Notes: generated by a model from the sequence alone, not told the origin. Shown: positions 17,864 through 50,382, numbered from the stretch's first letter. The stretch is 64,000 bases of DNA from a bacterium (GCA_035402825.1 DAONDZ010000001.1:172839-236838); one strand, 5' to 3'. Made by a program: numbers and translations.

Positions 17864-18871
17864 TTAATTTATTTCAATGTCGATAAAGAGTATCTGTGGT
17901 ATTTGTTGTTTGATGTCTGACTCAATGTCATCAATTTCTTGTCCGATGAGCCGCGGTACTCTGTCCATATAGTCAACGCAGAAGCGCATGAACCCTTCAT
18001 AGTTTTCGCTGGCGAATTCATATTCTTTCTTGAGAAAGCGATTTTTTTCCAAGCGTTCAATTAAGGCGCTGGCGTTGAACTCCACTTCGCATTTGATGAG
18101 GTATTTGTTGACATCTAAAACGGTGGATTTGAAAAGCAATACTTTTTCAATGGTCGGTTCGGACTCCAATATCTCAATGGCTTTCTTTTGTAATTCTTTG
18201 GGCATGGCTTTGGAGAGCAGAAAGGAGCGGTTCTTGTTGATGAGTACTATGGCCATGATACCTAGGAGCAAACCAATCAGAATGGAACCGGCGGCATCAA
18301 AGAAGTGCAAGCCGGTAACACGGCTCAAATAGATACTGCCCATAGCGATAGAGACGCCGATGACTGCTAGGCTGTCTTCATAGAAGACGGCTAGAGAAAC
18401 TGGGTCAGCTTCTTTTAAGGTCTGACGCCACTTTTTGCCGCCACTATGTTTTTTGATGTCTCTAATGGCCAAGAACAAGGTGAATGATTCGATAATAAAT
18501 GAGGCTAAGAGGATATAAATGGTAAAGGAGTGGTAAGTAAAAACTTCTTGATGAATAAGAACGCTAATACCATGGTAGACAGTCACGCCGCAACCAATGA
18601 AGAAGATGCCGCAAGCTGAAATTAGCGCCCAAACAAAACGTTCCCGGCCATAGCCATAGGGGAAGAACTTGTCGGCGGCTTTGGTAGATTTTTTCACTCC
18701 AATCAATAACAAAAATTGATTAGCGGTGTCGGCTAAGCTGTGAACAGCTTCGGAAAATAAGGCGCTGGAACCGGAGAAGGCAAAGCCCACGAATTTGCTT
18801 AAGCAGACGATGCTGTTTCCCAGGAAGGCGGCTAGAACCGGCAATAAGCCGGCAGTTTTTGGATCGGTCAT
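17864..18871 (-). CDS. Cation diffusion facilitator family transporter
   Basis: Six TM helices, HSLADTANQ motif in TM2, cytoplasmic C-terminal domain. Confidence 0.65.
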   Translation of the reverse strand: MTDPKTAGLLPVLAAFLGNSIVCLSKFVGFAFSGSSALFSEAVHSLADTANQFLLLIGVKKSTKAADKFFPYGYGRERFVWALISACGIFFIGCGVTVYHGISVLIHQEVFTYHSFTIYILLASFIIESFTLFLAIRDIKKHSGGKKWRQTLKEADPVSLAVFYEDSLAVIGVSIAMGSIYLSRVTGLHFFDAAGSILIGLLLGIMAIVLINKNRSFLLSKAMPKELQKKAIEILESEPTIEKVLLFKSTVLDVNKYLIKCEVEFNASALIERLEKNRFLKKEYEFASENYEGFMRFCVDYMDRVPRLIGQEIDDIESDIKQQIPQILFIDIEIN

Positions 18872-18877
18872 ATATAG

Positions 18878-20482
18878 TTATTTTATCATGTAGCTATCTT
18901 TTAGGCGATATCCCATCTTTTTGTAATATCCCCGCACGCCCACTCCGGAAATAATGGCTATTTTTTTGATGCCCTCTTTTTTGGCTATGGCTTCGGCGGT
19001 TTGTAATAGTTTTTTACCCCAGCCGGAGTGTTGAATAATCTTTTTTTCTCCGGTCGGCACCAATTCGCCATAGACATGCAACTCTCTGATGAGGGCCGGA
19101 GCGATCGGACTGTCTTTGGATAGTCTCAGCCGGCAGAAACCGTATAATACTTTTTTGTCCGGACTGTCGGCACTAATGAAATATTCCGTACCATTACCGG
19201 CCGGGTATTTAGTGATATTTATTTTGGCTTTATTAATTTCTTTATTCTCTTTAGCTTCCCGACAGCGGATGCAGCGGCATTCTACTCCCCGCTGCTGCAT
19301 CACTTGGCGCAGGTTGGTGATTAAATTACCGGCCACAATAGACTCAGCGGGAATATCTCTAATGAGGCGAATGATGCGGACATACTCCGGCACCACTTTT
19401 TTGCATTCGGTGATTAAATCTTGCAGCTGTTTGTCGGTGTATGGTTTGTATTTTCCTTGTTTATACCATCTATACAGCAAACTACCTTTAGTGACAATGG
19501 TGGGATAAAACTTGATTTGGTCGGGCTGATAATCGGAGTCGTTAAATAGTTTTTTAAACCAAGCCAAGTCTTTCCGCGGGCTAGATCCGGGCAAAGCCGG
19601 CATGAGGTGATAGGTGACTTTAAAGCCATAATCGCGCAGCAGCTTGGTAGCTTGAGCAGTTTCTTTATTCCCATGGCCGCGGCGGTTCTTTTTTAAAATT
19701 TCATCATCAATGGCTTGGACACCTATTTCGACGCGAGTGCAGCCCAATTCCCGCATGGTTTTTACTTCCGTCTCATTAATATAGTCCGGCCGGGTTTCCA
19801 GGGTCAGGCCGATTATCTTATACTCCGCTGTTTCATTTTTTTTCTGCTCTTTAGCTAATTCTTTCTTTAATTCTGGCAGCGACAAGTTTTTGGGGTATGG
19901 GGCCTTGGTATTTTTGATGTTTAGATTATGATGCTTAGCTTTGTTGAAATCATTGGCGCCTTTAAAGCAGTTTAAAATATACCAATATTGGTATTTAATC
20001 GGCAAATAACTCCAGGTGCCGCCAATGACGATGATTTCTATTTTCTTTGGTTCATGGCCGTTGTTTTCTAAAGCGTTTAAGCGCAGCATCACTTGGCGAT
20101 AGGGGTCATAGCCGCAACGAATAGCCCGCATGACGGCCGGTTCGTTAGACAAATAGCTGGTGGGAACATTTTTTTCGTTGGGGCAATAAGCGCAATGACC
20201 AGGGCAGGGGTATGGCTTGGTAAGGACTGCCACCGGAGCAATGCCGGACATTGTTCTAATGGCGCGCTTGCGAAATAGCCGCAGCAGCCGATTGAGCTGC
20301 TCTTTCTTTTTTGGATCCCGAGAGTTTTTAATCTGTTTCTTGATTTCCGCTAAAATTTCCGAATGGAGCGGAATGGGCAGGCCGGAAGACTTCGCGACGG
20401 AGCGTTTAATCTGGTTCATGGTCTCTAAATCCATTGGGGAGGCGAGACTGAGGGCGATAATTTTTTTAGTTGCTCCTTCCAT
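18878..20482 (-). CDS. elp3: Elp3-like radical SAM / GNAT acetyltransferase (tRNA U34 modification family)
   Basis: Radical-SAM cluster CPGHCAYCP, TIM-barrel region, and C-terminal GNAT (HSGWGKKLLQTAEAIAKKEG). Confidence 0.8.
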   Translation of the reverse strand: MEGATKKIIALSLASPMDLETMNQIKRSVAKSSGLPIPLHSEILAEIKKQIKNSRDPKKKEQLNRLLRLFRKRAIRTMSGIAPVAVLTKPYPCPGHCAYCPNEKNVPTSYLSNEPAVMRAIRCGYDPYRQVMLRLNALENNGHEPKKIEIIVIGGTWSYLPIKYQYWYILNCFKGANDFNKAKHHNLNIKNTKAPYPKNLSLPELKKELAKEQKKNETAEYKIIGLTLETRPDYINETEVKTMRELGCTRVEIGVQAIDDEILKKNRRGHGNKETAQATKLLRDYGFKVTYHLMPALPGSSPRKDLAWFKKLFNDSDYQPDQIKFYPTIVTKGSLLYRWYKQGKYKPYTDKQLQDLITECKKVVPEYVRIIRLIRDIPAESIVAGNLITNLRQVMQQRGVECRCIRCREAKENKEINKAKINITKYPAGNGTEYFISADSPDKKVLYGFCRLRLSKDSPIAPALIRELHVYGELVPTGEKKIIQHSGWGKKLLQTAEAIAKKEGIKKIAIISGVGVRGYYKKMGYRLKDSYMIK

Positions 20483-20532
20483 GTTTTTCGAGTATAATAT
20501 AAGTAGTTGTATATTATAATAATAATCATTTT

Positions 20533-21657
20533 ATGTCAAAAACAAAGCTTTTTTTAGCGATTTTTTCTCTGGGGCTGATTTCTTTGGCTCCAATTGCCAC
20601 CCTGGCTTATAGCGTCAGAAGCGAAAGCTCTATCTATATCCCCAAGGAGCAAGCAGTGGAAGGCAATTTGTATGCCGCGGCTTCTAGTTTGGTGATTGAC
20701 GGCAATGTCTATGGCGATGTGATAGCGGCTGCTGAGAATATTACCATTAACGGTGAGGTGAATGGCGATGTCATTGGTGTCGCTTCCAATATCACTGTTA
20801 ACGGTCCGGTTTCCGGCAGTATCCGGGTTTTAGGAGAAAATTTGAATTTTAATAATGCAGTCAATCGAAATATTAATGCCTTGGGCAATGTTGTCATCTT
20901 AGGAAACAATTCCAAAGTAGGCGGTGATGTCTTAGCGGCTAGTGGAGCGTTAGAAAGCCGGGGGCAAATTAATGGCAGCCTGCATGGAGTTTCTGATAGG
21001 TGGGTAATTGCCGGCACGGTTTTACAAAATGTTGACGCTCGGATCAGCAATCCGGAAGGAACAGTGACTTTGGTGGACTCTGCCAAGGTGAGCGGTTCTT
21101 TTAAATACATGTCTTTAAAAGAAGGCGGTATTAATTCTTCCTTAGTAGAGGGAGAAGTGATTCGCTTGGTTCCTAAGGATAAAGGCTGGCAGGCTGGACC
21201 TTATTTTTTGCATCGTTTATATGGGTTGTTGTCTTCTCTATTAGTAGCCTTAGTTATTTTAAGCCTTTGGCCGCGACAGATTAGAAAGATAGCTGTGGTG
21301 GAAAAGAATAAATTGGGTTGGCAAGCCTTAATCGGCTTAGCCGCTTTATTCTTGACCCCTTTCGTTTGCTTCCTCTTGCTTTTCACTTTCATCGGTTGGC
21401 CGCTAGCTTTAATTTTAGGAGTTCTTTGGCTAGTGGCAATATACTTAGCTAAAATTTGGGTGGGTATTTCTTTGGGCGCTTGGATTTTCCAGAAGCTGAA
21501 GAAAGCACCGACTAAAAAAGGATTATCCGAAATGGCTTTGGGCCTATTGGCTCTTTGGATCCTTCTAGCTATTCCTTTTGTCGGCATGGCCGTTTCCTTC
21601 TTGGCTATTTGTTGGGGACTGGGCATGATAGTGGGAAGTATAAAAATTAATCGCTAG
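20533..21657 (+). CDS. Membrane protein with bactofilin-like beta-helix repeats
   Basis: Signal/TM N-terminus, repeated G-[DN]-V units (IDGNVYGDVIAAAENITINGEVNGDVIGVASNITVNG...), four C-terminal TM helices. Confidence 0.4.
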   Translation: MSKTKLFLAIFSLGLISLAPIATLAYSVRSESSIYIPKEQAVEGNLYAAASSLVIDGNVYGDVIAAAENITINGEVNGDVIGVASNITVNGPVSGSIRVLGENLNFNNAVNRNINALGNVVILGNNSKVGGDVLAASGALESRGQINGSLHGVSDRWVIAGTVLQNVDARISNPEGTVTLVDSAKVSGSFKYMSLKEGGINSSLVEGEVIRLVPKDKGWQAGPYFLHRLYGLLSSLLVALVILSLWPRQIRKIAVVEKNKLGWQALIGLAALFLTPFVCFLLLFTFIGWPLALILGVLWLVAIYLAKIWVGISLGAWIFQKLKKAPTKKGLSEMALGLLALWILLAIPFVGMAVSFLAICWGLGMIVGSIKINR

Positions 21658-36848: not shown

Positions 36849-36887
36849 TACGAACTCTCCTATATTTAATAAATGAAATCAAATTAC

Positions 36888-36992
36888 GTGCTCTTCCGAG
36901 AGAGGATATATAAACAATTAAATTATTAATGAAACAAAGCAACGGACAATATTTTCGGCATTGATAAATTAATATTACTTTTTATAAAAAAA
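36888..36992 (+). repeat. Junction J1 (attL-like): degenerate core, element left arm and promoter
   Basis: gtgctct-tccgagagaggatatataaacaa...cattgataaattaatattactttttataa aligns with 38310-38416, including an identical 29-mer. Contains TTGATA, 16 nt spacer, TATAAA (36961-36988). Confidence 0.6.
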
Positions 36993-37118
36993 AGTCAATT
37001 AATTTAAAATTATAGTTTTATAAAATAATTATCTCTATTTTTAGAGATTTTCTCAGTTCTCGCTATTACTGAGTGGCATGTGTTATAATATGAATACTAA
37101 GTATTAATTTTGTTTTAT

Positions 37119-38216
37119 ATGAAATCTAAAAAAGCCTTTACTCTCATTGAACTCCTCGTTGTGATTGCCATCATTGGCATCCTCGCTACTATTTCCGTTA
37201 TTGCTTTAAACAATGCTCGCGCTAAATCGCGTGATGCTAAAAGAATTGGAGATATCAAGCAAGTCTCAACTGCTTTAGAGCTTTTCTTTAATGATAAAAA
37301 TCGTTATCCGACTGTGGAAGAATGGAATACCGGACAGATTTTTTCTACTACTACCGGCGCTACCTCGACTTATATGCAAATCATTCCAGCCGCCCCAACG
37401 CCTAACGATGGCTCTTGCACAACTGGACAAAACACTATTAGCTATACTCCAACACTCGATGGAGCTTCCTATACTGTCTCTTTTTGTTTAGGCAATACTA
37501 CTGGGGCCCTTGATTCCGGACCGAAGTGCTTGACTCCTGGAGGCGTTTTGGATGTAGATTGTTCAATCACTATTCCTGCCGCCCCTAGCTTTGCTTGTGG
37601 CACTGATAGTGTGACTTATGAAGGTGAAGTCTATCCTACTGTTTATATTGATAATACTGGTGGCCACAATTTGAGCCTTCCTGGCCAATGTTGGTTCGCC
37701 AAAAACCTCAATGTGGGAACTATGGTTGCTGGTGCTGCCAATCAAGCTGATAACGGTATTATAGAAAAGTATTGTTATAATGATAATACTTCCAATGAAT
37801 GTGCTACTGATGGCGGTTTGTATCAATGGGATGAAGCTATGCAATATTCCGTGGCTGAATCGGCTCAGGGCATTTGCCCTGACGGGTGGCATTTGCCGAC
37901 TGACGCAGAACAAAATACCTTGGATCAAAATTTAAATGACACCACTTGTAATGCTAATAGAACTGGAGATTGGGGTTGTGCTAACGCCGGTACTAAATTA
38001 CAGGACGGTGGGACTTCTGGACTTAATGTTCTCCGAGCCGGCACTCGTTATATCAATGCGGCGTTCTACGCTCGAGGGGTGTACACGATTTTTTGGTCAT
38101 CGTCTATTAGCGGTTCGGCCGCCTGGGGTCGGAATGTGACCACTAACAACGCTGCCGTTTACCGCAATTCTTATGACCGAACCACCGGCTATTCTGTGCG
38201 TTGTCTTCAGGACTAA
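37119..38216 (+). CDS. Type IV pilin-like protein with a C-terminal FISUMP-type domain (paralogue 1, not matched by the TR)
   Basis: KAFTLIELLVVIAIIGILA prepilin-type N-terminus. GGLYQWDEAMQY...GICPDGWHLPTDAEQNTL...YSVRCLQD. ATG 37119 preferred. Extended -10 TGtTATAAT at 37081-37089. Confidence 0.8.
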   Translation: MKSKKAFTLIELLVVIAIIGILATISVIALNNARAKSRDAKRIGDIKQVSTALELFFNDKNRYPTVEEWNTGQIFSTTTGATSTYMQIIPAAPTPNDGSCTTGQNTISYTPTLDGASYTVSFCLGNTTGALDSGPKCLTPGGVLDVDCSITIPAAPSFACGTDSVTYEGEVYPTVYIDNTGGHNLSLPGQCWFAKNLNVGTMVAGAANQADNGIIEKYCYNDNTSNECATDGGLYQWDEAMQYSVAESAQGICPDGWHLPTDAEQNTLDQNLNDTTCNANRTGDWGCANAGTKLQDGGTSGLNVLRAGTRYINAAFYARGVYTIFWSSSISGSAAWGRNVTTNNAAVYRNSYDRTTGYSVRCLQD

Positions 38217-38248
38217 TTCGACTATTTTGATCTTTTGGAAGGCCGAAT

Positions 38249-38267: not shown

Positions 38268-38273
38268 GTATAA

Positions 38274-38399
38274 ACAAAAAGAGAACTGGCACAGGCCAGT
38301 TCTCAGAAAGTACTCCTCCGAGAAGAAATATCGAAACATTTAAACGAAATTGTTGAGGAAATTAAACTTTGGTCGATGTTTTTGACATTGATAAATTAA
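38274..38399 (+). pseudogene. 3'-terminal remnant of a serine recombinase gene spanning junction J2
   Basis: Reads TKRELAQASSQKVLLREEISKHLNEIVEEIKLWSMFLTLIN*, compared with NKRELATASSPKVPLREKISKRFNEIIGEIKRWARFLDECPF* at the end of the 43659-45236 recombinase. Nothing upstream of it is recombinase-like. Confidence 0.65.
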
Positions 38400-38415
38400 T
38401 ATTACTTTTTATAAC
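38388..38415 (+). promoter_or_regulatory. Candidate promoter in the element left arm
   Basis: TTGATA, 16 nt spacer, TATAAC. Identical 29-mer at 36958-36986. A perfect TTGACA also sits at 38382-38387. Confidence 0.4.
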
Positions 38416-38489
38416 TATAAAAGTCAACAAAGTTAAAATCCTCTTTTGTTTATTCAAAAACCTAATTAAAATTTACTCCCACTATTGTC

Positions 38490-38499
38490 GGGGGGGGGG
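38490..38499 (+). repeat. G10 homopolymer tract in the promoter region of the DGR target gene
   Basis: tcGGGGGGGGGGcagaaaaTGtTATAAT. The tract ends 10 nt upstream of the -10 hexamer. Confidence 0.9.
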
Positions 38500-38506
38500 C
38501 AGAAAA

Positions 38507-38515
38507 TGTTATAAT
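38507..38515 (+). promoter_or_regulatory. Extended -10 element (TGtTATAAT) upstream of the DGR target gene
   Basis: The same TGtTATAAT is found upstream of paralogue 1 (37081-37089). Confidence 0.5.
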
Positions 38516-38551
38516 AAAACTAGATTAAGCTAATTATTAATTTATTTTAAT

Positions 38552-39697
38552 ATGTTAAAGAGAAAAGCCTTCACTCTAGTAGAACTATTGGTAGTAATAG
38601 CCATCATTGGCCTATTAGCTACTCTATCAGTCATTGCTCTAAATAGTGCTAGAGCTAAGTCTAGAGATGCTAAGAGAGTAGCTGATGTTAAACAGATCTC
38701 TACGGCTCTAGAGCTATTCTTCAATGATGCTGGCAGATACCCCACTGATCTAGAATGGGCTAGTGGCTCTTTAGAGTATAATGGTCAGACCTATCTCTCT
38801 ATTATCCCTTCTGCCCCTACCCCTGCTGATGGTAGCTGTGACTCTACTACCAACTCTTTTTCTTATACCCAGGATAATAGTGGTGAATCATATACTCTCA
38901 CCTTCTGTACTGGTGGAGTAGTGGGTTCTCTTACTGCTGGTGAGCTTTGTGCTACCCCGGGTGGGATGGCGGGGTGTGGGGGAGGCGGGGGCTGTATTCT
39001 TGATTGTACTAACAAAAACTGTGGTGATGATGGCTGCGGTGGTAGCTGTGGTGTTTGTACCGGCAATGATGTCTGTACTAATGGTACCTGTACTACTCCT
39101 CCTTTTGCTTGCGGAGACTCTGTCTCCTATGGCGGTGAATCATATCCCACGGTTCTGATCGGAGCCCAGTGTTGGTTTGCTAAGAATTTAAATGTTGGGG
39201 ATATGGTGACCGGGGTCACCCCTCAGTCAAACAACGCTATTGTAGAAAAATATTGTTATAATGATGACGCTTCTCATGAATGCGCCACCTACGGTGGCCT
39301 ATACCAATGGGATGAAGCTATGCAATATTCTGTCACCGAAGGGGCCCAAGGTATTTGTCCTGACGGTTGGCATATCCCAACTGACGCTGAACAAAATACT
39401 TTAGACCAAGGTTTAAATGATACTACTTGTAATGCTAATAGAATTTTAGCTTGGGACTGTGCCAATGCCGGTACCAAATTACAGGCTGGAGGTACTTCTC
39501 ATTTTGAAGGCCTCTTGGCCGGCTACCGCAATACCAATGGGTCGTTCAACGATCAAGGGACGTACGCGCTCTTCTGGTCATCTACTATTAGTGGACCGGA
39601 TGCCTGGGATCGGCTCTTGTACACTGGCTACGCGACCGTTCGCCGCGGTCATGATGACCGAGCCTACGGCTTTTCCGTGCGTTGCCTTCAGGACTAA
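38552..39697 (+). CDS. DGR variable (target) protein: type IV pilin-like N-terminus, Cys/Gly-rich linker, FISUMP-type C-terminal domain
   Basis: KAFTLVELLVVIAIIGLLA; CGGGGGCILDCTNKNCGDDGCGGSCGVCTGNDVCTNGTCT; GGLYQWDEAMQY...GFSVRCLQD. The last 178 nt form the VR. Confidence 0.9.
   Translation: MLKRKAFTLVELLVVIAIIGLLATLSVIALNSARAKSRDAKRVADVKQISTALELFFNDAGRYPTDLEWASGSLEYNGQTYLSIIPSAPTPADGSCDSTTNSFSYTQDNSGESYTLTFCTGGVVGSLTAGELCATPGGMAGCGGGGGCILDCTNKNCGDDGCGGSCGVCTGNDVCTNGTCTTPPFACGDSVSYGGESYPTVLIGAQCWFAKNLNVGDMVTGVTPQSNNAIVEKYCYNDDASHECATYGGLYQWDEAMQYSVTEGAQGICPDGWHIPTDAEQNTLDQGLNDTTCNANRILAWDCANAGTKLQAGGTSHFEGLLAGYRNTNGSFNDQGTYALFWSSTISGPDAWDRLLYTGYATVRRGHDDRAYGFSVRCLQD
39518..39695 (+). other. 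DGR variable region (VR)
   Basis: 178 nt aligned without gaps to TR 40277-40454. There are 16 mismatches, each opposite a TR adenine. Confidence 0.9.
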
Positions 39698-39700
39698 TTC

Positions 39701-39727
39701 GACTATTTTGACTATTTTGACTATTTT
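39701..39727 (+). repeat. Three tandem copies of gactatttt just after the target stop codon
   Basis: gactatttt gactatttt gactatttt. Paralogue 1 has one copy in the same place (taattcgactattttga is shared). Confidence 0.85.
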
Positions 39728-39752
39728 TCCGCCTCGTGTAAGCGAGGCGGAA
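39727..39752 (+). promoter_or_regulatory. GC-rich hairpin downstream of VR (candidate DGR target-recognition cruciform and/or terminator)
   Basis: ttccgcctcg / tgtaag / cgaggcggaa: a 10-bp perfect stem. With a t-g closing pair the loop becomes GTAA (GNRA-type). Confidence 0.55.
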
Positions 39753-39768
39753 TTAATTAAATTTTTCT

Positions 39769-40113
39769 ATGGCTACCTATGATAATTTGCCGGTGTATAA
39801 AGCCAGTTATGATTTACTGCTAGAAATATTCACTTTCAGTAAGAACATGGACAAAGAATATAAATATACCATTGGAGAAGATTTGAAAAAAGAAACCACG
39901 GCCATGATTACCAATATCTATCGCGCCAACTGCAACCAAAATAAAAAAGAGTTAATTCAAAGTGGTCGGGAAAATTTGGAAGTCATCAGATTATATTTAC
40001 GCCTAATTAAAGATTTGAAACAAATAAATTTGTTAAAATTTGTAAAGATTAATGAAATTATTGAGTCAATTTCCAAGCAATTAAATTTTTGGCAAAGTGC
40101 CATGAAATCATAA
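39769..40113 (+). CDS. avd: DGR accessory variability determinant (four-helix-bundle, 23S rRNA IVS protein family)
   Basis: 114 aa helical protein (PVYKASYDLLLEIFTFSKNMDKEYKYTIGEDLKKETTAMITNIYRAN...) sitting between target and TR as in canonical DGRs. Confidence 0.75.
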   Translation: MATYDNLPVYKASYDLLLEIFTFSKNMDKEYKYTIGEDLKKETTAMITNIYRANCNQNKKELIQSGRENLEVIRLYLRLIKDLKQINLLKFVKINEIIESISKQLNFWQSAMKS

Positions 40114-40276
40114 TGGGCCAGAGTCGTCATCGGTTACGGCCAGGGCGAGCGTGCCTCACTAGTCCAATAGTCCACTAAATTTTCTAAATTTAGTAATTGA
40201 CGGGGCAACCTGTCATTCTGCTGATTTTTTAGATAATATCAAATCAGCCGAAGAGGTTAGCGATTATTATAAAAGA

Positions 40277-40454
40277 GCCGGCAACCGCAATACCAATGGG
40301 TCGTTCAACAATCAAGGGACGAACGCGAACTTCTGGTCATCTACTATTAGTGGACCGGATGCCTGGAATCGGAACTTGAACACTGGCAACGCGACCGTTA
40401 ACCGCAATCATAATGACCGAGCCAACGGCTTTTCCGTGCGTTGCCTTCAGGACT
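40277..40454 (+). other. DGR template region (TR)
   Basis: Encodes AGNRNTNGSFNNQGTNANFWSSTISGPDAWNRNLNTGNATVNRNHNDRANGFSVRCLQD in the VR frame, with 15 AAY codons. Flanked by hairpins at 40178-40198, 40220-40248 and 40461-40487. Confidence 0.9.
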
Positions 40455-40508
40455 GGTCAAAAGGAGCCATATATCAATGGCTTCTTTTATTTTACTAAAA
40501 TATTTTTT

Positions 40509-41684
40509 ATGTCCGACAAACTTCTGGTTGACCTTTTTCAAGCCTATTACGACGCCCGACGCTATAAAAGAAATACAATGAGCGCTCTTAACTTTGAGAT
40601 TAATTTGGAGCAAAATATATTTGAATTGTATCGGGAGATAAAAAATAATACTTATCAAATTAGTCCCAGCCTAGCTTTTATTATCTTTGACCCGGTGCAG
40701 AGAGAAATTATCGCCTCGCCCTTTCGGGATCGAGTCGTGCATCACCTGGTTTTTAATTATATCAACCCCATTCTTGAAAATCTCTTTATTTCTGACAGTT
40801 ATAGCTGTCGCCAAGGCAAGGGTATTAGCTACGGAGTTAAGCGAGTCGCTCATTTTGTCCGCTCCAGTTCGCAAAATTATAGAGTTGATAATTATATTCT
40901 CAAATTGGATATTTCCGGCTATTTTATGAGTATTAACCAATCTGTTTTATATGATAAGGTAGAAAATTATTTATTAAGGCATAATGTTGATTACCCCTTT
41001 GACCTAAAATTAATTTCAGCCCTGCTAAAGAGAATTGTTTTTCACGATTATATTAAAGATTGCGTTATAAGAGGTGGAAAGACCAACTGGAAAAAATTAC
41101 CCCGCAACAAGAGTCTATTTTTCACGCCCCCGGGTTTTGGTTTGCCCATTGGCAATTTAACCTCGCAATTATTTAGTAATGTTTATTTAAATGATTTTGA
41201 CCATTATATTAAGCGGACTTTGAAATTTAAGTATTATGGTCGTTATGTCGATGACTTAATCATTATTGACGGTAGTAAAGAAAGGCTCCAAATAGCTATG
41301 GCCAAAATTGCGGAATATTTATCAACGAATCTAAACTTAAAAATTCACCCCAGAAAAATCTATTTACAGCCCTATGCCAAAGGCGTTAATTTTTTAGGCG
41401 GGATTATTAAACCCCACAGAATTTATGTCCGCCACCGGACTAAAACCAGTTTTTATCGCTCAGCGACTAAGGCTAATAATATTCTGAAGAATGTAGATGT
41501 AGAAAGGAAAGCCCTCAGGAAAATTTTATCCAGTTTTAATTCCTATTTAGGGGTGTTTGGGCAATATCAGACCTATAATTTACGCCGTAAAATATTGGAC
41601 AACAAGCTATCCTCGGATTTTTGGCGTTATTTTAGACTTGGGAAAGGTGAGTCAAGATATAGAAAAATTGTTTTAAGAAAATAA
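40509..41684 (+). CDS. DGR reverse transcriptase
   Basis: LPIGNLTSQLFSNVYLNDFD (the IGxxxSQ motif typical of DGR RTs) and YGRYVDDLIII (YxDD). ATG 40509 chosen because the longer track ORF (40413) starts inside the TR. Confidence 0.9.
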   Translation: MSDKLLVDLFQAYYDARRYKRNTMSALNFEINLEQNIFELYREIKNNTYQISPSLAFIIFDPVQREIIASPFRDRVVHHLVFNYINPILENLFISDSYSCRQGKGISYGVKRVAHFVRSSSQNYRVDNYILKLDISGYFMSINQSVLYDKVENYLLRHNVDYPFDLKLISALLKRIVFHDYIKDCVIRGGKTNWKKLPRNKSLFFTPPGFGLPIGNLTSQLFSNVYLNDFDHYIKRTLKFKYYGRYVDDLIIIDGSKERLQIAMAKIAEYLSTNLNLKIHPRKIYLQPYAKGVNFLGGIIKPHRIYVRHRTKTSFYRSATKANNILKNVDVERKALRKILSSFNSYLGVFGQYQTYNLRRKILDNKLSSDFWRYFRLGKGESRYRKIVLRK

Positions 41685-41690
41685 TTATAC

Positions 41691-42306
41691 TTATCCCCAG
41701 CAAAATGCTAGCAAATTTAAATATTTAAAAAAGTTTTTCAAATTCCCAATAAATTCACCCCTTAACCTTACCGCTAATTTATGCTATGATACATTCAGAC
41801 TTAATCAATAAAAATATATAACCTCGGGACCCATTGTTGAATAGATGTCGCTCGCATGAAACGCAAAATAAAAAAATAAAACTCATAAAATAATATCCCC
41901 TGTAAATTAGCAAAGTCTTTCTTTGCCAATTGAAACTAATTAACCAGCATTTGTCCGTGCTCGGTTTTTTTGTTTTGGCAAAGACTATTAAATTTCGTCG
42001 TCGCCTGTTTAGATAGCGAAACAGGTTAGTTGATTTCTTTGGTGTAAACATAAGCGTGTAGTTTGGTTTTAGCCTATTAGTGGTACTTGCCCGTCGCTAA
42101 TGGCTAGTTCTGTTATTAATTTCTCATTTTTGACCGTCCCCCAAGCATTGTTTTTTAGTTTTTTTTCGGCGAGGCTTGTCCGCTCGCCGAAAAAATAAAA
42201 ACAAGCTGGGGGCGGTAAATGAGATTTTAGACAAAAGTAGTGTCCGTTTGTCGTGTGCCTCTATTAGACTTGACTATAGGCACACTTAACGCCGTTATTA
42301 AACTCT
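41691..42306 (+). other. Conserved structured non-coding region upstream of Rep (copy 1): promoter, terminator-like hairpin, nested stem-loops, candidate replication origin
   Basis: Aligns with 47040-47682. TTAACC, 17 nt, TATGAT at 41762-41790. Hairpin plus T run at 41944-41976. Nested structure 42122-42224 (tctcattt...aaatgaga enclosing ttttttcggcgag/ctcgccgaaaaaa). Hairpin gtgtgcct...aggcacac at 42253-42285. Confidence 0.55.
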
Positions 42307-43098
42307 ATGGAAATTAAACCACGAGTTTATCGGCAGAAGCTGGTAGAGTCGGGTGATTATGTGGAAATATATGATTATGAGAATTTCATTAAAATTAATC
42401 AAAAGAGAAAACGAAGAAGAAATACAACCAAGAGACCTAAATTTATCGGCCCACCTACTTATTTAGATGTGCTTTGTCGAGAAACAAAAAATGGTTTTTC
42501 TCTAAGGCGAACTCGGTCAAATATTGTTAGATTGGTAAATTCTAACCCCGATTTAAAAGTATTTATTACTCTCACCTTTGATAGCCATAAATTCGGGGAT
42601 AAGCCGTTTACTGATTTTAAGGAATGTAATTTGATATTTTCTAATTTCATTAAACGACTAAAAAGGAAATATCCCGATTTAAAATATTTGGCCGTGCCTG
42701 AATTTCAGAGCGACTATTATCACCGCACCAATATTAGAAAAGAATTTGGCGGTAATATTCACTATCATTTATTGTCTAATTTGCCGTTTATTGAAAATAC
42801 TCAATTAGAAAAAATCTGGGGCTACGGATTTATTAAAATCAATAATATCCGACAGGTGTCTGCTGTCGGTCCGTATGTGGCTAAATATGTCGGCAAAGAA
42901 TTGTTTGACGGTCGTTTAAATGGGAAAAAGAAATTGTTTTATTCTCGCACTCTTAATCGCTCTAAAATCATTATTACCTACTCAAAAATAAAAGAATATT
43001 TAAACAACTTAAAATCACCCCTCAAGCTTTTGCACGAGACAACTTACAAGTCCGAGTATCTCAGCAGAGCTCGCTATCGGCTCTATAAACAAGGATAG
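42307..43098 (+). CDS. HUH-superfamily rolling-circle replication initiator (two-tyrosine type), copy 1
   Basis: Motif 1 VFITLTF, motif 2 NIHYHLLS (HUH), motif 3 GPYVAKYVGKE (Y-x3-Y). Confidence 0.7.
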   Translation: MEIKPRVYRQKLVESGDYVEIYDYENFIKINQKRKRRRNTTKRPKFIGPPTYLDVLCRETKNGFSLRRTRSNIVRLVNSNPDLKVFITLTFDSHKFGDKPFTDFKECNLIFSNFIKRLKRKYPDLKYLAVPEFQSDYYHRTNIRKEFGGNIHYHLLSNLPFIENTQLEKIWGYGFIKINNIRQVSAVGPYVAKYVGKELFDGRLNGKKKLFYSRTLNRSKIIITYSKIKEYLNNLKSPLKLLHETTYKSEYLSRARYRLYKQG

Positions 43099-43138
43099 CA
43101 AAACTGATTTTGTTAATCATACGTTCATCTAAAATATA

Positions 43139-43288
43139 ATGACTATTGAGGCTCTTAAAAAATCAATAGTAGGTCGTGGGCGACAGTATTCCGATGACGA
43201 ATTGGAGACAATTAGACGCGACTTATACCAACTGGCTCATCTGCTAGTCGAATATTATTTTAATCAGCAAAAAATATTAATAAAATAA
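43139..43288 (+). CDS. Small helical protein (49 aa), YSDDELE-RRDLY family
   Basis: MTIEALKKSIVGRGRQYSDDELETIRRDLYQLAHLLVEYYFNQQKILIK. Conserved in E_C (48518-48673). Confidence 0.5.
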   Translation: MTIEALKKSIVGRGRQYSDDELETIRRDLYQLAHLLVEYYFNQQKILIK

Positions 43289-43298
43289 ATAAAAAATT

Positions 43299-43454
43299 AT
43301 GATGAGTATAAGTAAATTAAGAAAATTGTTAAGCGAAAAGGCAAATGAATACAGCGAAGAAGAACTAGAAGAAATGCGGCGAGATATTTATACATTTGCT
43401 AATCTAGCCTTTGATATTTATAAAGAGAATCCCAGGATATTAGATAAATATTAA
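43299..43454 (+). CDS. Small helical protein (51 aa), paralogue of the preceding ORF
   Basis: MMSISKLRKLLSEKANEYSEEELEEMRRDIYTFANLAFDIYKENPRILDKY shares the YS-EELE-x-RRD-Y-x-A-L core. Confidence 0.45.
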   Translation: MMSISKLRKLLSEKANEYSEEELEEMRRDIYTFANLAFDIYKENPRILDKY

Positions 43455-43461
43455 AGCGATA

Positions 43462-43658
43462 TTGTAAAAATAAAAATATATGTTATTATCCTTAATGGAC
43501 ATAACTTATAATAGCGGAAAGCTACTATTTTCTTACATCATAATGACGGCAGATAAGTCGTTTTGATATAAAGGGAGCAGTGGCTGTTTCAACAAGGCTT
43601 TCCGCTAAGTTGTGTCCAACAGTTCACTGCTCTCTTTTTATTATTAACTTTTAACCCT
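43462..43658 (+). promoter_or_regulatory. Promoter plus about 165-nt structured leader of the recombinase gene (copy 1)
   Basis: TTGTAA, 16 nt, TGtTATTAT (43462-43489). P1 ggacataactta/taagttgtgtcc; P2 agcggaaagc/gctttccgct; long-range gagcagtg (43575-82)/cactgctc (43625-32) followed by tctcttttta. Confidence 0.5.
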
Positions 43659-45236
43659 ATGCAAAAAGGAATAATCTATTACCGAGTTTCAACCGAAGAT
43701 CAGGCTCAAACTGGTGTTAGTTTGGAGCAACAGAAAAACGCTTGTCTTGATTACGCTCAAAAGAATGATATTGAAATACTAAAATTATTTCACGATGACG
43801 GAGTGTCTGCTAAAACTACCAAAAGAGCAGGACTTCAAGAACTATTGGCGTATTGTAAAAAGAATCATAAAGAGATTGATTGTTTGATAGTCTATAAAAT
43901 TGACCGGCTATCTCGAAATGTAAAAGACTACGCCACGCTATTAATGGCTTTGGGCGAATTTAACATTAAATTCATATCTACCACTGAAACCGTTAACGAA
44001 ACTTCTAGCGGAAAATTAATTGGCACAATTATGGCCTCGTTCGCTCAATTTGATAATGATGTTAGGAGCGAAAGAGTGTCGGTCTGTATGCTCGAAAAAG
44101 CCAAGCAGGGAATCTGGTGCTTCAAGGCCCCATTCGGTTATCTAAACAGCCGTGATGAGCAAAATAGAGCCATTATAACCATTGATAAGAGTAGGGCCGA
44201 GATTATTAAAATGGCCTTTGAAAAGTTTGCTACAGGATTATATAAAATGGAGGAAATACGGATAATGATGATTAAGGCCGGATTTAAAACCTGGCGAGAT
44301 AAAGAAATAAGCATCCAAAGTGTATTTAGAATTTTGATTGATAAGTTTTATATTGGAGTTATGACGATTAAAGGTCAAGAATATCAGGGGAGCCACGAGG
44401 TTTTTATTAATGAAAACACTTTTTATAAATGTCAAAAATTAATCCGCACTTCTAAACGAGGCGACAATATTGCTTTTAAACGCACTAATGAAATGTTCCC
44501 TCTCAGAAATTTTATTTTATGCCCCTCCTGTGGTCGTCCTTTTACTGCTTGCTTGTCCCGCAACTCCCGGGGTAATTATTACCCGTATTATAGATGTTAT
44601 AACAAAAACTGCCGAGGTTATAAATCAATATCTAAAGATAAATTGGAAAATAAGTTCAGCGATTATCTTAAAAGTATAGCGCCTGATCCTTATTTTGCCA
44701 AAGATTTAAGATTAATAGTTATTGAGGAATGGGAGAAAAAAATTAAAAACTATAAAGGCAGTTTGGTTGATGCCAAAAATCAGTTAGAAGTATTGGAATT
44801 AGAAAAGTCCAAATTGATAGAAATGAAGAAAAAGGACCTGCTTGACGACAATGATTTTAAAGAAGAAATGTCTAAAGTGAAGATTAAAATTGCTGAGAAA
44901 CAGTCTACCCCAGCTGAGAATATTCCTAATAATTTTGACATTAAGAAACAATCCAAAAAAGTTTTTGATATCATTCCCGACCTTGATAAATTTTATAATA
45001 GTCTTGGTTATTATGACAAACTTAAATTTCAGAGTTTGATTTTTCCCGAAAAGGTCTATTTTGATTTTTCAGAAAGTCGAACAGCTAAAATGTCGCTAAT
45101 ATTACAGAATAAAAGAGAACTGGCGACTGCCAGTTCCCCGAAAGTACCCCTCCGAGAGAAGATATCTAAACGATTTAACGAAATTATTGGGGAAATTAAG
45201 CGGTGGGCGAGGTTTTTGGACGAATGCCCATTTTGA
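43659..45236 (+). CDS. Large serine recombinase (integrase), copy 1
   Basis: Resolvase-type catalytic domain (IYYRVSTEDQ...VYKIDRLSRN), recombinase domain, zinc ribbon (CPSCGRPFTAC...YYRCYNKNC), coiled coil. Confidence 0.85.
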   Translation: MQKGIIYYRVSTEDQAQTGVSLEQQKNACLDYAQKNDIEILKLFHDDGVSAKTTKRAGLQELLAYCKKNHKEIDCLIVYKIDRLSRNVKDYATLLMALGEFNIKFISTTETVNETSSGKLIGTIMASFAQFDNDVRSERVSVCMLEKAKQGIWCFKAPFGYLNSRDEQNRAIITIDKSRAEIIKMAFEKFATGLYKMEEIRIMMIKAGFKTWRDKEISIQSVFRILIDKFYIGVMTIKGQEYQGSHEVFINENTFYKCQKLIRTSKRGDNIAFKRTNEMFPLRNFILCPSCGRPFTACLSRNSRGNYYPYYRCYNKNCRGYKSISKDKLENKFSDYLKSIAPDPYFAKDLRLIVIEEWEKKIKNYKGSLVDAKNQLEVLELEKSKLIEMKKKDLLDDNDFKEEMSKVKIKIAEKQSTPAENIPNNFDIKKQSKKVFDIIPDLDKFYNSLGYYDKLKFQSLIFPEKVYFDFSESRTAKMSLILQNKRELATASSPKVPLREKISKRFNEIIGEIKRWARFLDECPF

Positions 45237-47039: not shown

Positions 47040-47682
47040 TTATCCACAGCGAAATATTAGCAAAACTAATTATTTTAAAAAATTGTTAAAATCACTCGCA
47101 AAACCAGCCCTTAACCCGCCCTCAAAAATATGGTATAATATAGTTGGACTAAAATAAAAATAAACTAACGCTGGGAACCACGGTTGAAACGGTATAAAGA
47201 TTATTGTATGCGCTTCTAAATAAAATAAAACTCAAAAAATATTATCCCTTGCAAAAATTAGCAAAGTCCAGTCTTTGCCAATTTAAACTTTAAACCAACA
47301 TTAGGCCGATGTTCGGTTTTTTTGTTTTGGTAAAGAGTAGTCGTCGGTTAGCAGTCTTGCCGTTGCTAGCCGACGACCATGCCTGTTTAGTCTCTCGTCT
47401 TTGGCTAAGCAGGTTGGTAATTCCTTTTAGGTGAACATAAGCGTATGATCTTGATTTAGCCCATTAGCGGCGTTTGCCCCGTTGCTAGTGGCTTGTTCTG
47501 TTCTTTTAATTTCTCATTATTGACGCCGCCGGACTGGATTTTTTCTTTTTTCGGCGAGTTGTCTGCGAGCCGAAAAAGAAAAACCAGCCGAGGCGGTAAA
47601 TGAGATTTTAGACAGAATAGTTCCCAGTGTGCCGTCGTCATATTAGACTTGACTATAGGCACACTTAACGCCGTGATAACTT
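47040..47682 (+). other. Conserved structured non-coding region upstream of Rep (copy 2)
   Basis: TTAACC, 17 nt, TATAAT (47111-47139, with TG). Hairpin plus T run at 47295-47329. Nested structure 47512-47608. Hairpin gtgtgcc...ggcacac at 47627-47664 with the same loop, tattagacttgactat. Confidence 0.55.
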
Positions 47683-48468
47683 ATGGAGATTAAACCACGA
47701 GTTTATCGGCAAAAGCTGATAGAGTCGGGTGATTATGTAGAAATATATGACTTTGAGAATTTCATTAAAATCAATCAAAAAAGAAAAAAGAGAAGAAATA
47801 AAAATAAAATTAAAAAAGATACTAATGACGAGGATAAAGAAAACGAGCAAAACTTAAAAAGCCATTTTTCATTGAGGCGGAGCCGATCAAATATTATTCG
47901 GTTGGTAAATTCCAACCCCGATTTAAAAGTATTTATCACCTTAACTTTTGATAGCCATAAATTTGGGGATAAGCCATTTACTGATTTTAAGGAATGTAAT
48001 TTGATATTTTCTAATTTCATTAAGCGGTTAAAACGGAAATACCCTGAATTAAAATATCTGGCCGTTCCCGAATTTCAAAGCGATTATTATCACCGCACTA
48101 ACATCAGAAAAGAATTTGGCGGTAATATTCACTATCATTTGCTGTCTAATTTGCCATTTATTCAGAGCGAAGAATTAGAGAAAATTTGGGGCTACGGATT
48201 CATTAAAATCAATAATATCCGACAGGTGTCTGCTGTCGGGCCGTATGTCGCCAAATATATCGGCAAAGAATTATTTGACGGTCGCTTAAATGGAAAGAAA
48301 AAATTGTTTTATTCGAGGACTCTTAATCGCTCTAAAATTGTTATTACTTATTCAAGAATAAAAGAATATCTCAACAACTTAAAATCACCTCTCCAGCTTT
48401 TGCACGAGACAACTTATCAGGCCGAATATGTCGGCAGAGTTCGCTATCGGCTCTATAAACAAAGGTAG
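47683..48468 (+). CDS. HUH rolling-circle replication initiator, copy 2
   Basis: Same three motifs as copy 1 (VFITLTF, NIHYHLLS, GPYVAKYIGKE). Differs mainly in the basic, low-complexity residues 30-65. Confidence 0.7.
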   Translation: MEIKPRVYRQKLIESGDYVEIYDFENFIKINQKRKKRRNKNKIKKDTNDEDKENEQNLKSHFSLRRSRSNIIRLVNSNPDLKVFITLTFDSHKFGDKPFTDFKECNLIFSNFIKRLKRKYPELKYLAVPEFQSDYYHRTNIRKEFGGNIHYHLLSNLPFIQSEELEKIWGYGFIKINNIRQVSAVGPYVAKYIGKELFDGRLNGKKKLFYSRTLNRSKIVITYSRIKEYLNNLKSPLQLLHETTYQAEYVGRVRYRLYKQR

Positions 48469-48517
48469 CCTAGTTAATAAACTAAAGTTGAATACCGACC
48501 CATTCAATATTCAACTC

Positions 48518-48673
48518 ATGATTAGTTTGACAGTCCTTAAAAAATTAATAGTAAGCCGTGGCCGACAGTATTCCGATGACGAATTGGAGACAATCAGGCG
48601 CGACTTATACCAACTGGCTCATCTTTCGTTCAAGTATTATCTTAATCAGCAAAAAAAGCTATTGTCAAAATAA
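48518..48673 (+). CDS. Small helical protein, YSDDELE-RRDLY family (E_C copy)
   Basis: MISLTVLKKLIVSRGRQYSDDELETIRRDLYQLAHLSFKYYLNQQKKLLSK. The track ORF 48428 starts inside Rep; ATG 48518 is preferred. Confidence 0.45.
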   Translation: MISLTVLKKLIVSRGRQYSDDELETIRRDLYQLAHLSFKYYLNQQKKLLSK

Positions 48674-48852
48674 AAATATATGCTAATATCCTTAATGGAC
48701 ACAATTAAATTAAGGCATAGCAACTATTCTCAAATCATAATGACGGCAGATGAGTCGTTTTGATATAAAGGGAGCAGTGGCTGTTTCAGTTATGCCTTGC
48801 ATAATTGTGTCCGACAGTTCACTGCTCTCTTTTTATTATTAACTTTAAATTT
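48662..48852 (+). promoter_or_regulatory. Promoter plus structured leader of the recombinase gene (copy 2)
   Basis: TTGTCA...TAATAT. P1 ggacacaatta/taattgtgtcc; P2 aaggcata/tatgcctt (a different sequence from copy 1, but still paired); same conserved loop and same cactgctc-tctcttttt end. Confidence 0.5.
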
Positions 48853-50382
48853 ATGGCCAAGCAAAAAGGTATTGTTTATTACCGAGTTTCTACCGAAGAT
48901 CAAGCTCAAACTGGCATTAGCTTAGAACAGCAGAAAAATGCCTGCCTTGATTATGCTCAAAAGAATGAAATTGAAATCTTGAAATTATTTCACGATGACG
49001 GCGTGTCCGCCAAAACTACCAAAAGGGCAGGCCTTCAAGAGTTGCTGGCGTATTGTAAAAAGAATTACAAAGAGATTGATTGTCTGATAGTTTATAAAAT
49101 TGACCGCTTGTCCCGAAATGTAAAAGACTACGCTACCTTGCTTATGGTTCTTGGCGAATTAAACATTAAATTCATTTCCACCACCGAAACAGTCAACGAT
49201 ACATCGAGCGGAAAGCTTATTGGCACGATTATGGCCTCATTTGCTCAATTTGATAATGATGTGCGAAGTGAAAGGGTGTCGGTTTGTATGCTGGAAAAGG
49301 CCAAGCAGGGGATTTGGTGCTTCAAAGCCCCATTTGGTTATCTAAACAGTCGAGATGGGCAAAATAGAGCCATTATAACCGTTGATAAGGAGCGTATGCC
49401 CATTATAAAAATGGCCTTTGAAAAGTTTGCCACGGGTTTATACAAAATGGAGGAAATTAGGCAGATGATGATTAAGGCCGGATTTAAAACATGGCGAGAT
49501 AAGGAAATAAGTATTCAAAGCGTATTCAGGATTTTAATTGATAAGTTCTATATTGGCGTTATGACGATTAAGGGCCAAGAATATCAAGGCAGTCATGAGA
49601 TATTTATTAATGAAAATACTTTTTATAAATGCCAAAAATTAATCCGTACTTCCAAGCGAGGCGACAATATTTCCTTTAAACGCACTAACGAATTATTCCC
49701 CTTGCGAAATTTTATTTTATGTCCCTCTTGCGGTCGGCCTTTCACCGCCTGCTTATCAAAAAATCACCAAGGCAAGCTCTACCCCTATTATATGTGCTAT
49801 AACAAACTCTGCCGAGGCTATAAGTCCATATCCAAAGATAAGCTGGAAAATCAGTTCAGCGATTATTTGAAAAATATATCGCCTGATCCTGATTTTGCTA
49901 AAGCTTATCAAGTAATTGTGGTCGAGGAATGGGAAAAAGGCTTGAAAAACTATCAAAGCAGTCTGGCTAATATAAAAAATGAATTAGATCAGTTGGAAAT
50001 AGAAAAATCTAAATTAATTGAAATGAAGAAAAAAGAGCTTTTAGATGACGAGGATTTTAAAGAGGAAATGTATAGAGTAAAAGTTAAAATAGCTGATAAA
50101 CAAAATTTTCCAGCCGACAATATCGCCGATGATTTTGATGTTAAAAAAGAATCTAAAAAAATTTTTACCATTATCCCTAATTTGGATAAATTCTATAATG
50201 GATTAAATTATTACGAAAAAATTAAACTACAAGGTTTGATTTTTCCTGAAAAGCCGGTGTTTGATTTTTCCGAAAATCGAACCCACAAAATCTCGCTAAT
50301 ATTACAAAACAAAAGAGAGCTGGCAAGTGCCAGTTCTCCGAAAGTACCCCCAAGAGGAATCGAACCTCTATGGTCAGCTTAG
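48853..50382 (+). CDS. Large serine recombinase (integrase), copy 2; its 3' end runs antisense into tRNA-Arg
   Basis: MAKQKGIVYYRVSTEDQ..., collinear with copy 1 up to ...SSPKVP, then PRGIEPLWSA* encoded opposite the tRNA. ATG 48853 preferred. Confidence 0.85.
   Translation: MAKQKGIVYYRVSTEDQAQTGISLEQQKNACLDYAQKNEIEILKLFHDDGVSAKTTKRAGLQELLAYCKKNYKEIDCLIVYKIDRLSRNVKDYATLLMVLGELNIKFISTTETVNDTSSGKLIGTIMASFAQFDNDVRSERVSVCMLEKAKQGIWCFKAPFGYLNSRDGQNRAIITVDKERMPIIKMAFEKFATGLYKMEEIRQMMIKAGFKTWRDKEISIQSVFRILIDKFYIGVMTIKGQEYQGSHEIFINENTFYKCQKLIRTSKRGDNISFKRTNELFPLRNFILCPSCGRPFTACLSKNHQGKLYPYYMCYNKLCRGYKSISKDKLENQFSDYLKNISPDPDFAKAYQVIVVEEWEKGLKNYQSSLANIKNELDQLEIEKSKLIEMKKKELLDDEDFKEEMYRVKVKIADKQNFPADNIADDFDVKKESKKIFTIIPNLDKFYNGLNYYEKIKLQGLIFPEKPVFDFSENRTHKISLILQNKRELASASSPKVPPRGIEPLWSA
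50311..50350 (+). repeat. Junction J4 (attR-like): element right arm plus core, fused to the tRNA-Arg acceptor stem
   Basis: aaaagagagctggcaagtgccagttctccgaaa-gtacccc, then caagaggaatcgaacc (the tRNA T arm, antisense). Confidence 0.65.

Follow-up and report, generated by a model that had tools for sequence, protein, structure and literature searches.

Within a 64,000-nucleotide stretch of bacterial DNA (hereafter the window), a run of ten G residues (G10) is, as judged by the comparison of related loci, a real and mutable tract, linked to a single promoter position within a single gene family. We consider it moderately probable that this G10 is a hypermutable tract that modulates the promoter output of a DGR-diversified, pilin-like FISUMP gene. 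Within that reading, the alignments make hypermutability and promoter linkage of the tract highly probable; the strict version, in which spacer length turns the promoter ON or OFF, is tentative, and, with a perfect extended -10, a graded, rheostat-like dial would be at least as likely as an ON/OFF switch. An effect of the tract on expression is what we infer from these sequences. The gene served by the predicted promoter encodes a surface pilin-like protein and is an active DGR target, and is thus of the kind that is usual for such switches.

The G10 tract and its promoter

The preliminary description had reported a G10 homopolymer at 38490-38499, and these coordinates were borne out by a direct read of the window, in which positions 38485-38515 are TTGTCGGGGGGGGGGCAGAAAATGTTATAAT. 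The tract and the predicted promoter elements near it are listed below.

38490..38499, + strand: G10 homopolymer, candidate slipped-strand hypermutable tract (direct read; relatives with like flanks have G8 or G9)
38507..38515, + strand: extended -10 TGTTATAAT, with TATAAT at 38510-38515 (consensus prediction; the identical 9-mer is found before the paralogue and in the L018 orthologue)
38485..38490, + strand: -35-like TTGTCG, with four of six matches to TTGACA and a 19-nt spacer; use uncertain (direct read)

The TATAAT of the extended -10 begins 10 nt past the end of the G10, and the predicted promoter is separated by 36 nt from the ATG of the pilin-like target gene. If transcription starts approximately 7 nt after TATAAT, the tract would occupy roughly positions -23 to -32. 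Because an in-frame TAA (38531-38533) stands between the tract and the ATG at 38552, the G10 is non-coding, and a switch of coding frame by the tract is ruled out by the same stop codon. No Rfam match to a known RNA element was found over the G10.

Such a run is exceptional in this genome. The G10 is the only G/C run of at least 7 nt in the 64,000 bases of the window, the next longest being a single C6; at the window's G+C content of 41%, the number of G/C runs of at least 10 nt expected per window is 0.02 under an independent-base model and 0.09 under a first-order Markov model. A further 21 kb from the same genome contained no G/C run of at least 7 nt. A contingency-locus strategy spanning the whole genome is not indicated, as the 85 kb sampled from it contain only one such tract.

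All five assemblies that cover the tract among other assemblies of the window's lineage (L001, L002, L003, L004 and L012, found by exact protein look-up) carry G10. An artefact of poly-G reads is unlikely, as the G10 and its identical flanks recur in assemblies made by different pipelines and from different samples. The loci of this lineage are, however, 100% identical to the window, including the VR (L001 has one mismatch in 12,345 nt), and near-total identity of this degree indicates a single clone, so that the repeated recovery of G10 says nothing on the stability of the tract either way. Several contigs of the lineage end (L014 at 38474, L015 at 38475, L013 at 38490) or start (L003 and L004 at 38476, L006 at 38545, L005 at 38571) near the tract; the start of L005 is Illumina adapter sequence joined to the gene. 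As a sign of heterogeneity these breaks are ambiguous, because those at 38474, 38475, 38476 and 38490 mostly fall off the sites at which differing tract lengths would open a bubble in a de Bruijn graph, and low coverage of AT-rich intergenic DNA explains them equally well.

It had also been proposed that the tract lies within a -35/-10 spacer. The components of that proposal (TTGTCG, TGTTATAAT and the 19 nt between them) are all correct, but the role that it gave to the -35 hexamer is weak: most of the intergenic TGnTAnAAT promoters in the window, including that of the tract-less paralogue, are without a clear -35, and no -35-like hexamer was found in the poly-C lineage (L121 and L122, discussed later), where the C tract itself fills the -35 position. 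These two observations render the geometry of a TTGTCG -35 and a 19-nt spacer doubtful. The site was absent from the output of the promoter scan, which accepted spacers of 16-18 nt. In relatives TTGTCG is replaced by TTGCGG, with a spacer of 16 nt where the tract is G8, 17 nt where it is G9, and 19 nt in L123. A strict spacer model is still tenable for the lineages that carry G tracts, because their spacers of 16, 17 and 19 nt (G8; G9; window and L123) straddle the optimum of 17 nt. Perfect extended -10 promoters usually depend little on a -35 element; given this, and the scarcity of clear -35 elements in the window, changes in spacing may matter little.

An invertible promoter was considered and rejected, as the sole inverted repeat at the tract matches at 13 of 15 nt and has one arm in coding sequence, and all assemblies show one orientation. 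The repeat pairs 38490-38504 (the G tract plus CAGAA) with 38809-38823 (codons of the conserved SAPTP motif of the gene), and is probably a coincidence of a Pro/Ala-rich coding segment. The promoter of the paralogue has, where the target has its G tract, a 6-bp inverted repeat formed by CTCAGT (37052-37057), 10 nt and ACTGAG (37068-37073), which could be an operator.

The DGR target gene and its surroundings

The features of the DGR, of the paralogue and of the upstream region are as follows.

38270..38400, + strand: fossil 3' end of a serine recombinase gene, in the distal upstream region of the target (translates to KRELAQASSQKVLLREEISKHLNEIVEEIKLWSMFLTLIN, then a stop)
37119..38216, + strand: tandem paralogue of the target, with extended -10 TGTTATAAT at 37081-37089 and no G tract (internal contrast)
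38552..39697, + strand: DGR target gene, 381 aa, with a type IV pilin-like N-terminal methylation motif and Fib_succ_major (FISUMP) (Pfam)
39518..39695, + strand: variable region (VR), a 178-nt repeat with the TR (repeat comparison)
39729..39750, + strand: GC-rich hairpin, CCGCCTCG, 6-nt loop, CGAGGCGG, approximately 30 nt after the VR (direct read)
39769..40113, + strand: bAvd accessory protein gene (Pfam bAvd, 4.8e-11)
40117..40274, + strand: RT-7 RNA motif, a weak match directly upstream of the TR and after bAvd (Rfam RF03028, 43.3 bits, E 7e-08, below the gathering score of 116.8)
40277..40454, + strand: template region (TR) (repeat comparison)
40413..41684, + strand: DGR reverse transcriptase (Pfam RVT_1, 2.9e-15)

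The gene downstream of the tract had been called a pilin-like DGR target, and both parts of that statement hold: the protein matches N_methyl (8.8e-07) and Fib_succ_major (8.6e-31), and each of the 16 mismatches between TR and VR falls at a TR adenine (16/16). In sister strains with the same bAvd protein, the differences in the VR lie at TR-A positions in 21 of 22 (L008) and 22 of 23 (L009) cases. The restriction of TR/VR mismatches to adenines, together with the VR differences among sister strains, establishes that the DGR is real and has been active in the population. Homologues of the target bear the database names of FISUMP domain proteins of Falkowbacteria or of the Patescibacteria group.

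The paralogue beginning at 37119 has, as previously described, the same extended -10 and lacks the G tract. Its VR-like region differs from the TR at 43 positions, only 20 of them at A, and it is therefore not a current target of this TR. The stretch resembling RT-7 may be the structured 5' part of the DGR RNA. The hairpin at 39729-39750 is placed where DGR targets carry one, and has a presumed role in the DGR. Three tandem copies of GACTATTTT follow the stop codon of the target (39692-39729) and lead into this hairpin, and the 3' end of the non-target paralogue (38211-38230) has one copy of GACTATTTT and no hairpin; this arrangement fits the hairpin as a putative mark of an active DGR target.

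The last ~40 codons of a serine recombinase gene are preserved as fossils in the window at 38270-38400 and 36880-36960 (compare 45100-45236, within the intact gene), and a like fossil lies upstream in L017 (~1267-1330), L019 (1-50) and L120 (1-50). The C-terminus of the intact recombinase (43659-45236) reads NKRELATASSPKVPLREKISKRFNEIIGEIKRWARFLDECPF and then a stop, and is the counterpart of the fossil KRELAQASSQKVLLREEISKHLNEIVEEIKLWSMFLTLIN; the fossil includes a hairpin, GAGAACTGGCACAGGCCAGTTCTC (38281-38304). Taken together, these positions suggest repeated insertion, or duplication, of a cassette beside the end of a recombinase gene. A module of Rep (REP_ORF2-G2P) and a large serine recombinase occupies 42016-45236 and is present in a second, ~81% identical copy at 47404-50350, and the DGR may thus lie within or beside tandem integrated mobile elements. 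In L123, a tRNA-Ser (GGA) gene (2141-2228) is located upstream of the G8 promoter and is followed, over the next ~200 nt, by CAGTTCGAACCCTGC and CAGTTCGAGTCCAATG, which are similar to tRNA 3' ends; these resemble integration scars, and the target gene may have arrived on an integrative element. In L017, a 300-nt direct repeat (599-898 and 2841-3140, 92% identical) flanks the pilin-like gene, and no ORF of the size of bAvd (at least 60 aa) was found after that gene; this arrangement could reflect an IS-like event in which the contig lost its DGR accessory genes.

Tract length among related loci

Comparison of the tract across related genomes, which the preliminary description had offered as a check, gave a positive result: G8, G9 and G10 occur on the same promoter block, and C8 and C9 occur elsewhere. 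The lengths listed below are those of consensus assemblies, three of them from Logan, in which a homopolymer miscall in any single contig is possible. Each line gives the tract, the nucleotides between tract and TG, the extended -10, and the distance from the end of the tract to the -10 hexamer.

Window: G10; CAGAAAA; TGTTATAAT; 10 nt
L017 (JGI metagenome contig from the DNA scan): G8; CAGAAAA; TGTTATAAT; 10 nt
L120 (Logan, protein P0032): G8; CAGAAAA; TGTTATAAT; 10 nt
L019 (Logan, protein P0002, 82% identical): G9; CAGAAAA; TGTTATAAT; 10 nt
L123 (protein P0006, 63% identical orthologue): G8, uninterrupted; TAATA (5 nt); TGGTATAAT; 8 nt
L121 (protein P0043): C9; ATAATCATTTA; TGATATAAT; 14 nt
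L122 (protein P0043, from a different sequencing run than L121): C8; ATAATCATTTA; TGATATAAT; 14 nt
38500..38606, + strand of the window: shared block, running from the 3' edge of the tract across the untranslated leader as far as the first codons; no differences among the window, L017 and L120, and one change in L019

Two pairs of loci differ by a single unit of the tract. Between L017 (G8) and L019 (G9), 135 nt upstream and ~75 nt downstream are identical and one G is the sole difference, yet the coding regions are only 85% identical; between L121 and L122, 1583 of 1584 aligned positions match, and the sole difference is an indel of one C in the tract. The gain or loss of one G between otherwise identical DNAs is the signature of slipped-strand mispairing in replication, and, as far as these alignments can be read, single-unit indels in the tract are much faster than change in its flanks. 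The gene bodies that follow the common block at 38500-38606 are 13-15% diverged despite it.

The more distant loci extend the pattern. The leader of L123 is homologous to that of the window, and of the 23 differences between the VR-like region of L123 and the TR of the window, 18 are at adenines. The promoter shared by L121 and L122 has flanks unrelated to those of the G-tract promoters, and a tract of the opposite base (C). The tract-bearing gene is followed by bAvd in L019 and by bAvd and a TR in L120, where all seven TR/VR mismatches are at TR adenines; in those lineages too, therefore, the predicted tract-bearing promoter would drive DGR targets. Seven further members of the family (the paralogue, L018, L100, L101, L124, L125 and L126) have no G/C tract. 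The window and ~66 kb of related loci, together ~130 kb, contain seven G/C runs of at least 7 nt; every one of them sits 8-14 nt upstream of the family's -10 hexamer (7/7), and no such run was found elsewhere in the same ~130 kb. A tract that is real, fast-mutating, retained in an orthologue of 63% identity, matched by a poly-C counterpart and confined to one promoter position has the comparative hallmarks of a contingency locus.

Several searches for additional relatives were made. A scan of metagenome DNA with a 21-nt downstream anchor returned two matches, one of them unrelated and the other L017, the first length variant. When the first 142 aa of the protein served as the query, the matches were mostly generic pilins of small size, and P0030 alone proved informative; the gene that encodes it is without the tract. 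Viral contigs scanned with the downstream anchor gave no match, and the pattern G8-N(8-12)-TGTTATAAT was found in 16 viral contigs. As a control, 256 kb from the contig scan with the family alignment contained three G/C runs of at least 8 nt, one of which adjoins a pilin-like gene; among the matches listed, the control contigs carry pilin N-termini or FISUMP domains of Bacteroidota, Planctomycetota and Verrucomicrobiota, and include no close relatives.

Two further loci merit description. In L084 (a MAG labelled Planctomycetaceae, 47% G+C), a G11 run followed by CAGTATAAG occupies positions 8-18, approximately 14 nt before a match to a pilin-like N-terminus, with 7 nt of contig left on its upstream side; this may be another homopolymer-controlled pilin gene, with the tract in coding sequence or in a promoter, in an unrelated or mis-binned genome. 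L101 belongs to the same genome as the window (contig Ga0116171_10000002, ~40 kb beyond the window) and has six or seven small genes of the T4SS_pilin family (12505-12900 and 18324-20971) beside a FISUMP pilin-like paralogue, none with a G/C tract of at least 7 nt.

Alternative explanations, proposed mechanism and known systems

We weighed four other accounts of the tract. It is conceivable, and in our view unlikely, that the tract slips and yet is functionally neutral, with the strong extended -10 firing regardless of tract length and the tract persisting only through a recent spread of the block between lineages. Consistent with neutrality, promoters in the window are mostly of the TGnTAnAAT type without a clear -35, the paralogue and six relatives have promoters of a similar kind without the tract, and the 100% identity of the block among the window, L017 and L120, set against gene bodies that are 13-15% diverged, indicates recent exchange rather than long retention. 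Neutrality would not, however, lead one to expect the survival of an uninterrupted G8 in the 63%-identical L123 orthologue, a repeat origin as poly-C at the equivalent position of a non-homologous promoter, or the absence of other G/C runs of at least 7 nt from ~130 kb. We give little credence to the idea that the tract is fixed and that the differences among G8, G9 and G10, and between C8 and C9, are miscalls of sequencing or assembly. Errors are frequent in homopolymers, contigs from several assemblies of the lineage to which the window belongs stop or start no more than 15 nt from the tract in what is evidently a region that is hard to assemble, and coverage, judged by contig name, was ~5x in at least one data set; yet five assemblies made by different pipelines agree exactly on G10, and two, L017 (JGI) and L120 (Logan), agree on G8, and miscalls would leave unexplained the restriction of tracts to one promoter position. 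Consensus errors of plus or minus 1 nt are, moreover, uncommon in short-read assemblies for runs of 8-10 nt.

Very little weight falls on the tract as a boundary of recombination or of a cassette, that is, a junction scar or recombination hotspot at which target cassettes, each with a constant promoter and leader, would be swapped or integrated beside fossil recombinase gene ends. The setting invites this account: similarity between the window and L017 starts at the tract (L017 1422 corresponds to window 38492) and is perfect for ~100 nt, with diverged upstream flanks; fossil serine recombinase 3' ends lie upstream of both paralogues and in L017, L019 and L120; an intact module of Rep and large serine recombinase, with a second copy 81% identical, lies downstream; and a tRNA-Ser gene and apparent tRNA 3'-end fragments precede the L123 promoter. 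The upstream flanks are nevertheless weakly alignable (CTATTGTC with CTATTTGC, GTCAACAAAG with GACCAACAAAG), so there is no clean junction; no att-like repeat is paired with the tract, the sole inverted repeat matching at 13 of 15 nt and having its other arm in coding sequence; and the distance to the -10, which stays at 8-14 nt whichever of three sequence contexts surrounds the tract, is better explained by a promoter role. Scarcely any weight can be given to the tract as an element of DNA structure or of protein binding, for example the operator of a regulator that binds G/C tracts, in which case its exact length would be incidental. The CTCAGT/ACTGAG repeat at the equivalent position in the paralogue is in its favour; on the other side, no candidate regulator was found, binding sites seldom vary in length, as the tract does, among near-identical relatives, and a single G10 cannot form an intramolecular quadruplex.

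We favour a hypermutable tract that modulates the promoter of the DGR target. From established knowledge of such repeats, slipped-strand mispairing would alter the tract by plus or minus 1 nt, and every 1-nt change would both shift and rotate the upstream DNA relative to the extended -10, moving such determinants as the weak TTGNCG -35-like hexamer and the AT-rich, UP-like DNA at ~38440-38480. Binding of RNA polymerase, and hence transcription of the pilin-like gene, would then change between cell lineages, with an output that could be ON/OFF or, as is more probable for a strong extended -10, stepwise, in the manner of a rheostat. One gene would thereby be varied at two levels: the amount made, through tract length, and what is bound, through DGR mutagenesis of the VR. 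With greater reserve, we suggest a Patescibacteria-like two-tier module on a pilin-like adhesin, in which the slippage-prone G/C promoter tract would determine if, and how strongly, the protein is made and the DGR rewrites the binding surface, and in which the tract would be a selected contingency locus; selection is proposed because the 63%-identical orthologue has kept the tract and because poly-C represents an independent origin. If that is true, it is possibly the first contingency locus described in the Patescibacteria radiation, and one that would gate attachment to a host or particle. If the tract tunes expression at all, a single surface protein is varied in two independent ways, which would be relevant to the means by which these very small bacteria, probably attached to hosts, protect themselves against a turnover of partners or phages. 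The positional rule, by which G/C runs of at least 7 nt precede the family's extended -10 hexamer by 8-14 nt, is, further, a simple search pattern for more cases.

The class of mechanism is a textbook one, homopolymer promoter switches being classic in Bordetella, Neisseria and Helicobacter. As far as our literature search shows, the setting is new: the tract occurs in a Patescibacteria-like genome and at a pilin-like gene that is diversified by a DGR, and its poly-G and poly-C forms are convergent. That search found no link between a DGR target and a homopolymer promoter switch; on Patescibacteria and phase variation it returned only a methylation study of an archaeal consortium, and a paper on a Bacteroides DGR made no mention of phase variation. 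As a DGR, the locus is comparable to those of the candidate phyla radiation with pilin-like or lectin-fold targets, since the window has all of the standard parts (TR/VR mismatches at adenines, a reverse transcriptase, bAvd, and a target with a C-terminal VR). In Neisseria meningitidis, the length of a poly-G or poly-C between the -35 and -10 of porA or opc sets the spacer and gives high, intermediate or no expression of the surface protein, an arrangement like that proposed in the preliminary description. That model needs a functional -35, whereas the hexamer here (TTGTCG or TTGCGG) is weak, and is absent from the poly-C lineage.

By gene type and tract chemistry, the C-stretch of the Bordetella fim promoters is the closest analogue, and in fimX the difference between C7 and C8 corresponds to an approximately fourfold change in transcript (PMC1891110). 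In fim2, fim3 and fimX of Bordetella pertussis and B. bronchiseptica, as is predicted for the window, a G/C homopolymer lies upstream of the -10 and over the -35 region of a gene for a pilus or fimbrial subunit, and length alleles differ by single bases between strains; in Bordetella, the level of transcript changes with tract length. The fim promoters require the activator BvgA and a conserved 'fim box'. The likeness is one of functional analogy, with no sequence similarity, and the tracts are 8-10 nt here and 10-19 nt there. Unlike the fim promoters, the promoter described here has a perfect extended -10, belongs to a Patescibacteria-like organism, and serves a gene that is also a DGR target. 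In the sabA promoter of Helicobacter pylori, slipped-strand changes in the length of a T-tract produce a graded, 'rheostat' output (Aberg et al. 2014, PMC4081817). This homopolymer is promoter-proximal, as is the G10, but is a T/A tract beside the -35 rather than a G/C tract, and its effect on expression has been proven experimentally, whereas that in the window is inferred. If the -35 is dispensable here, sabA would be the better mechanistic analogue.
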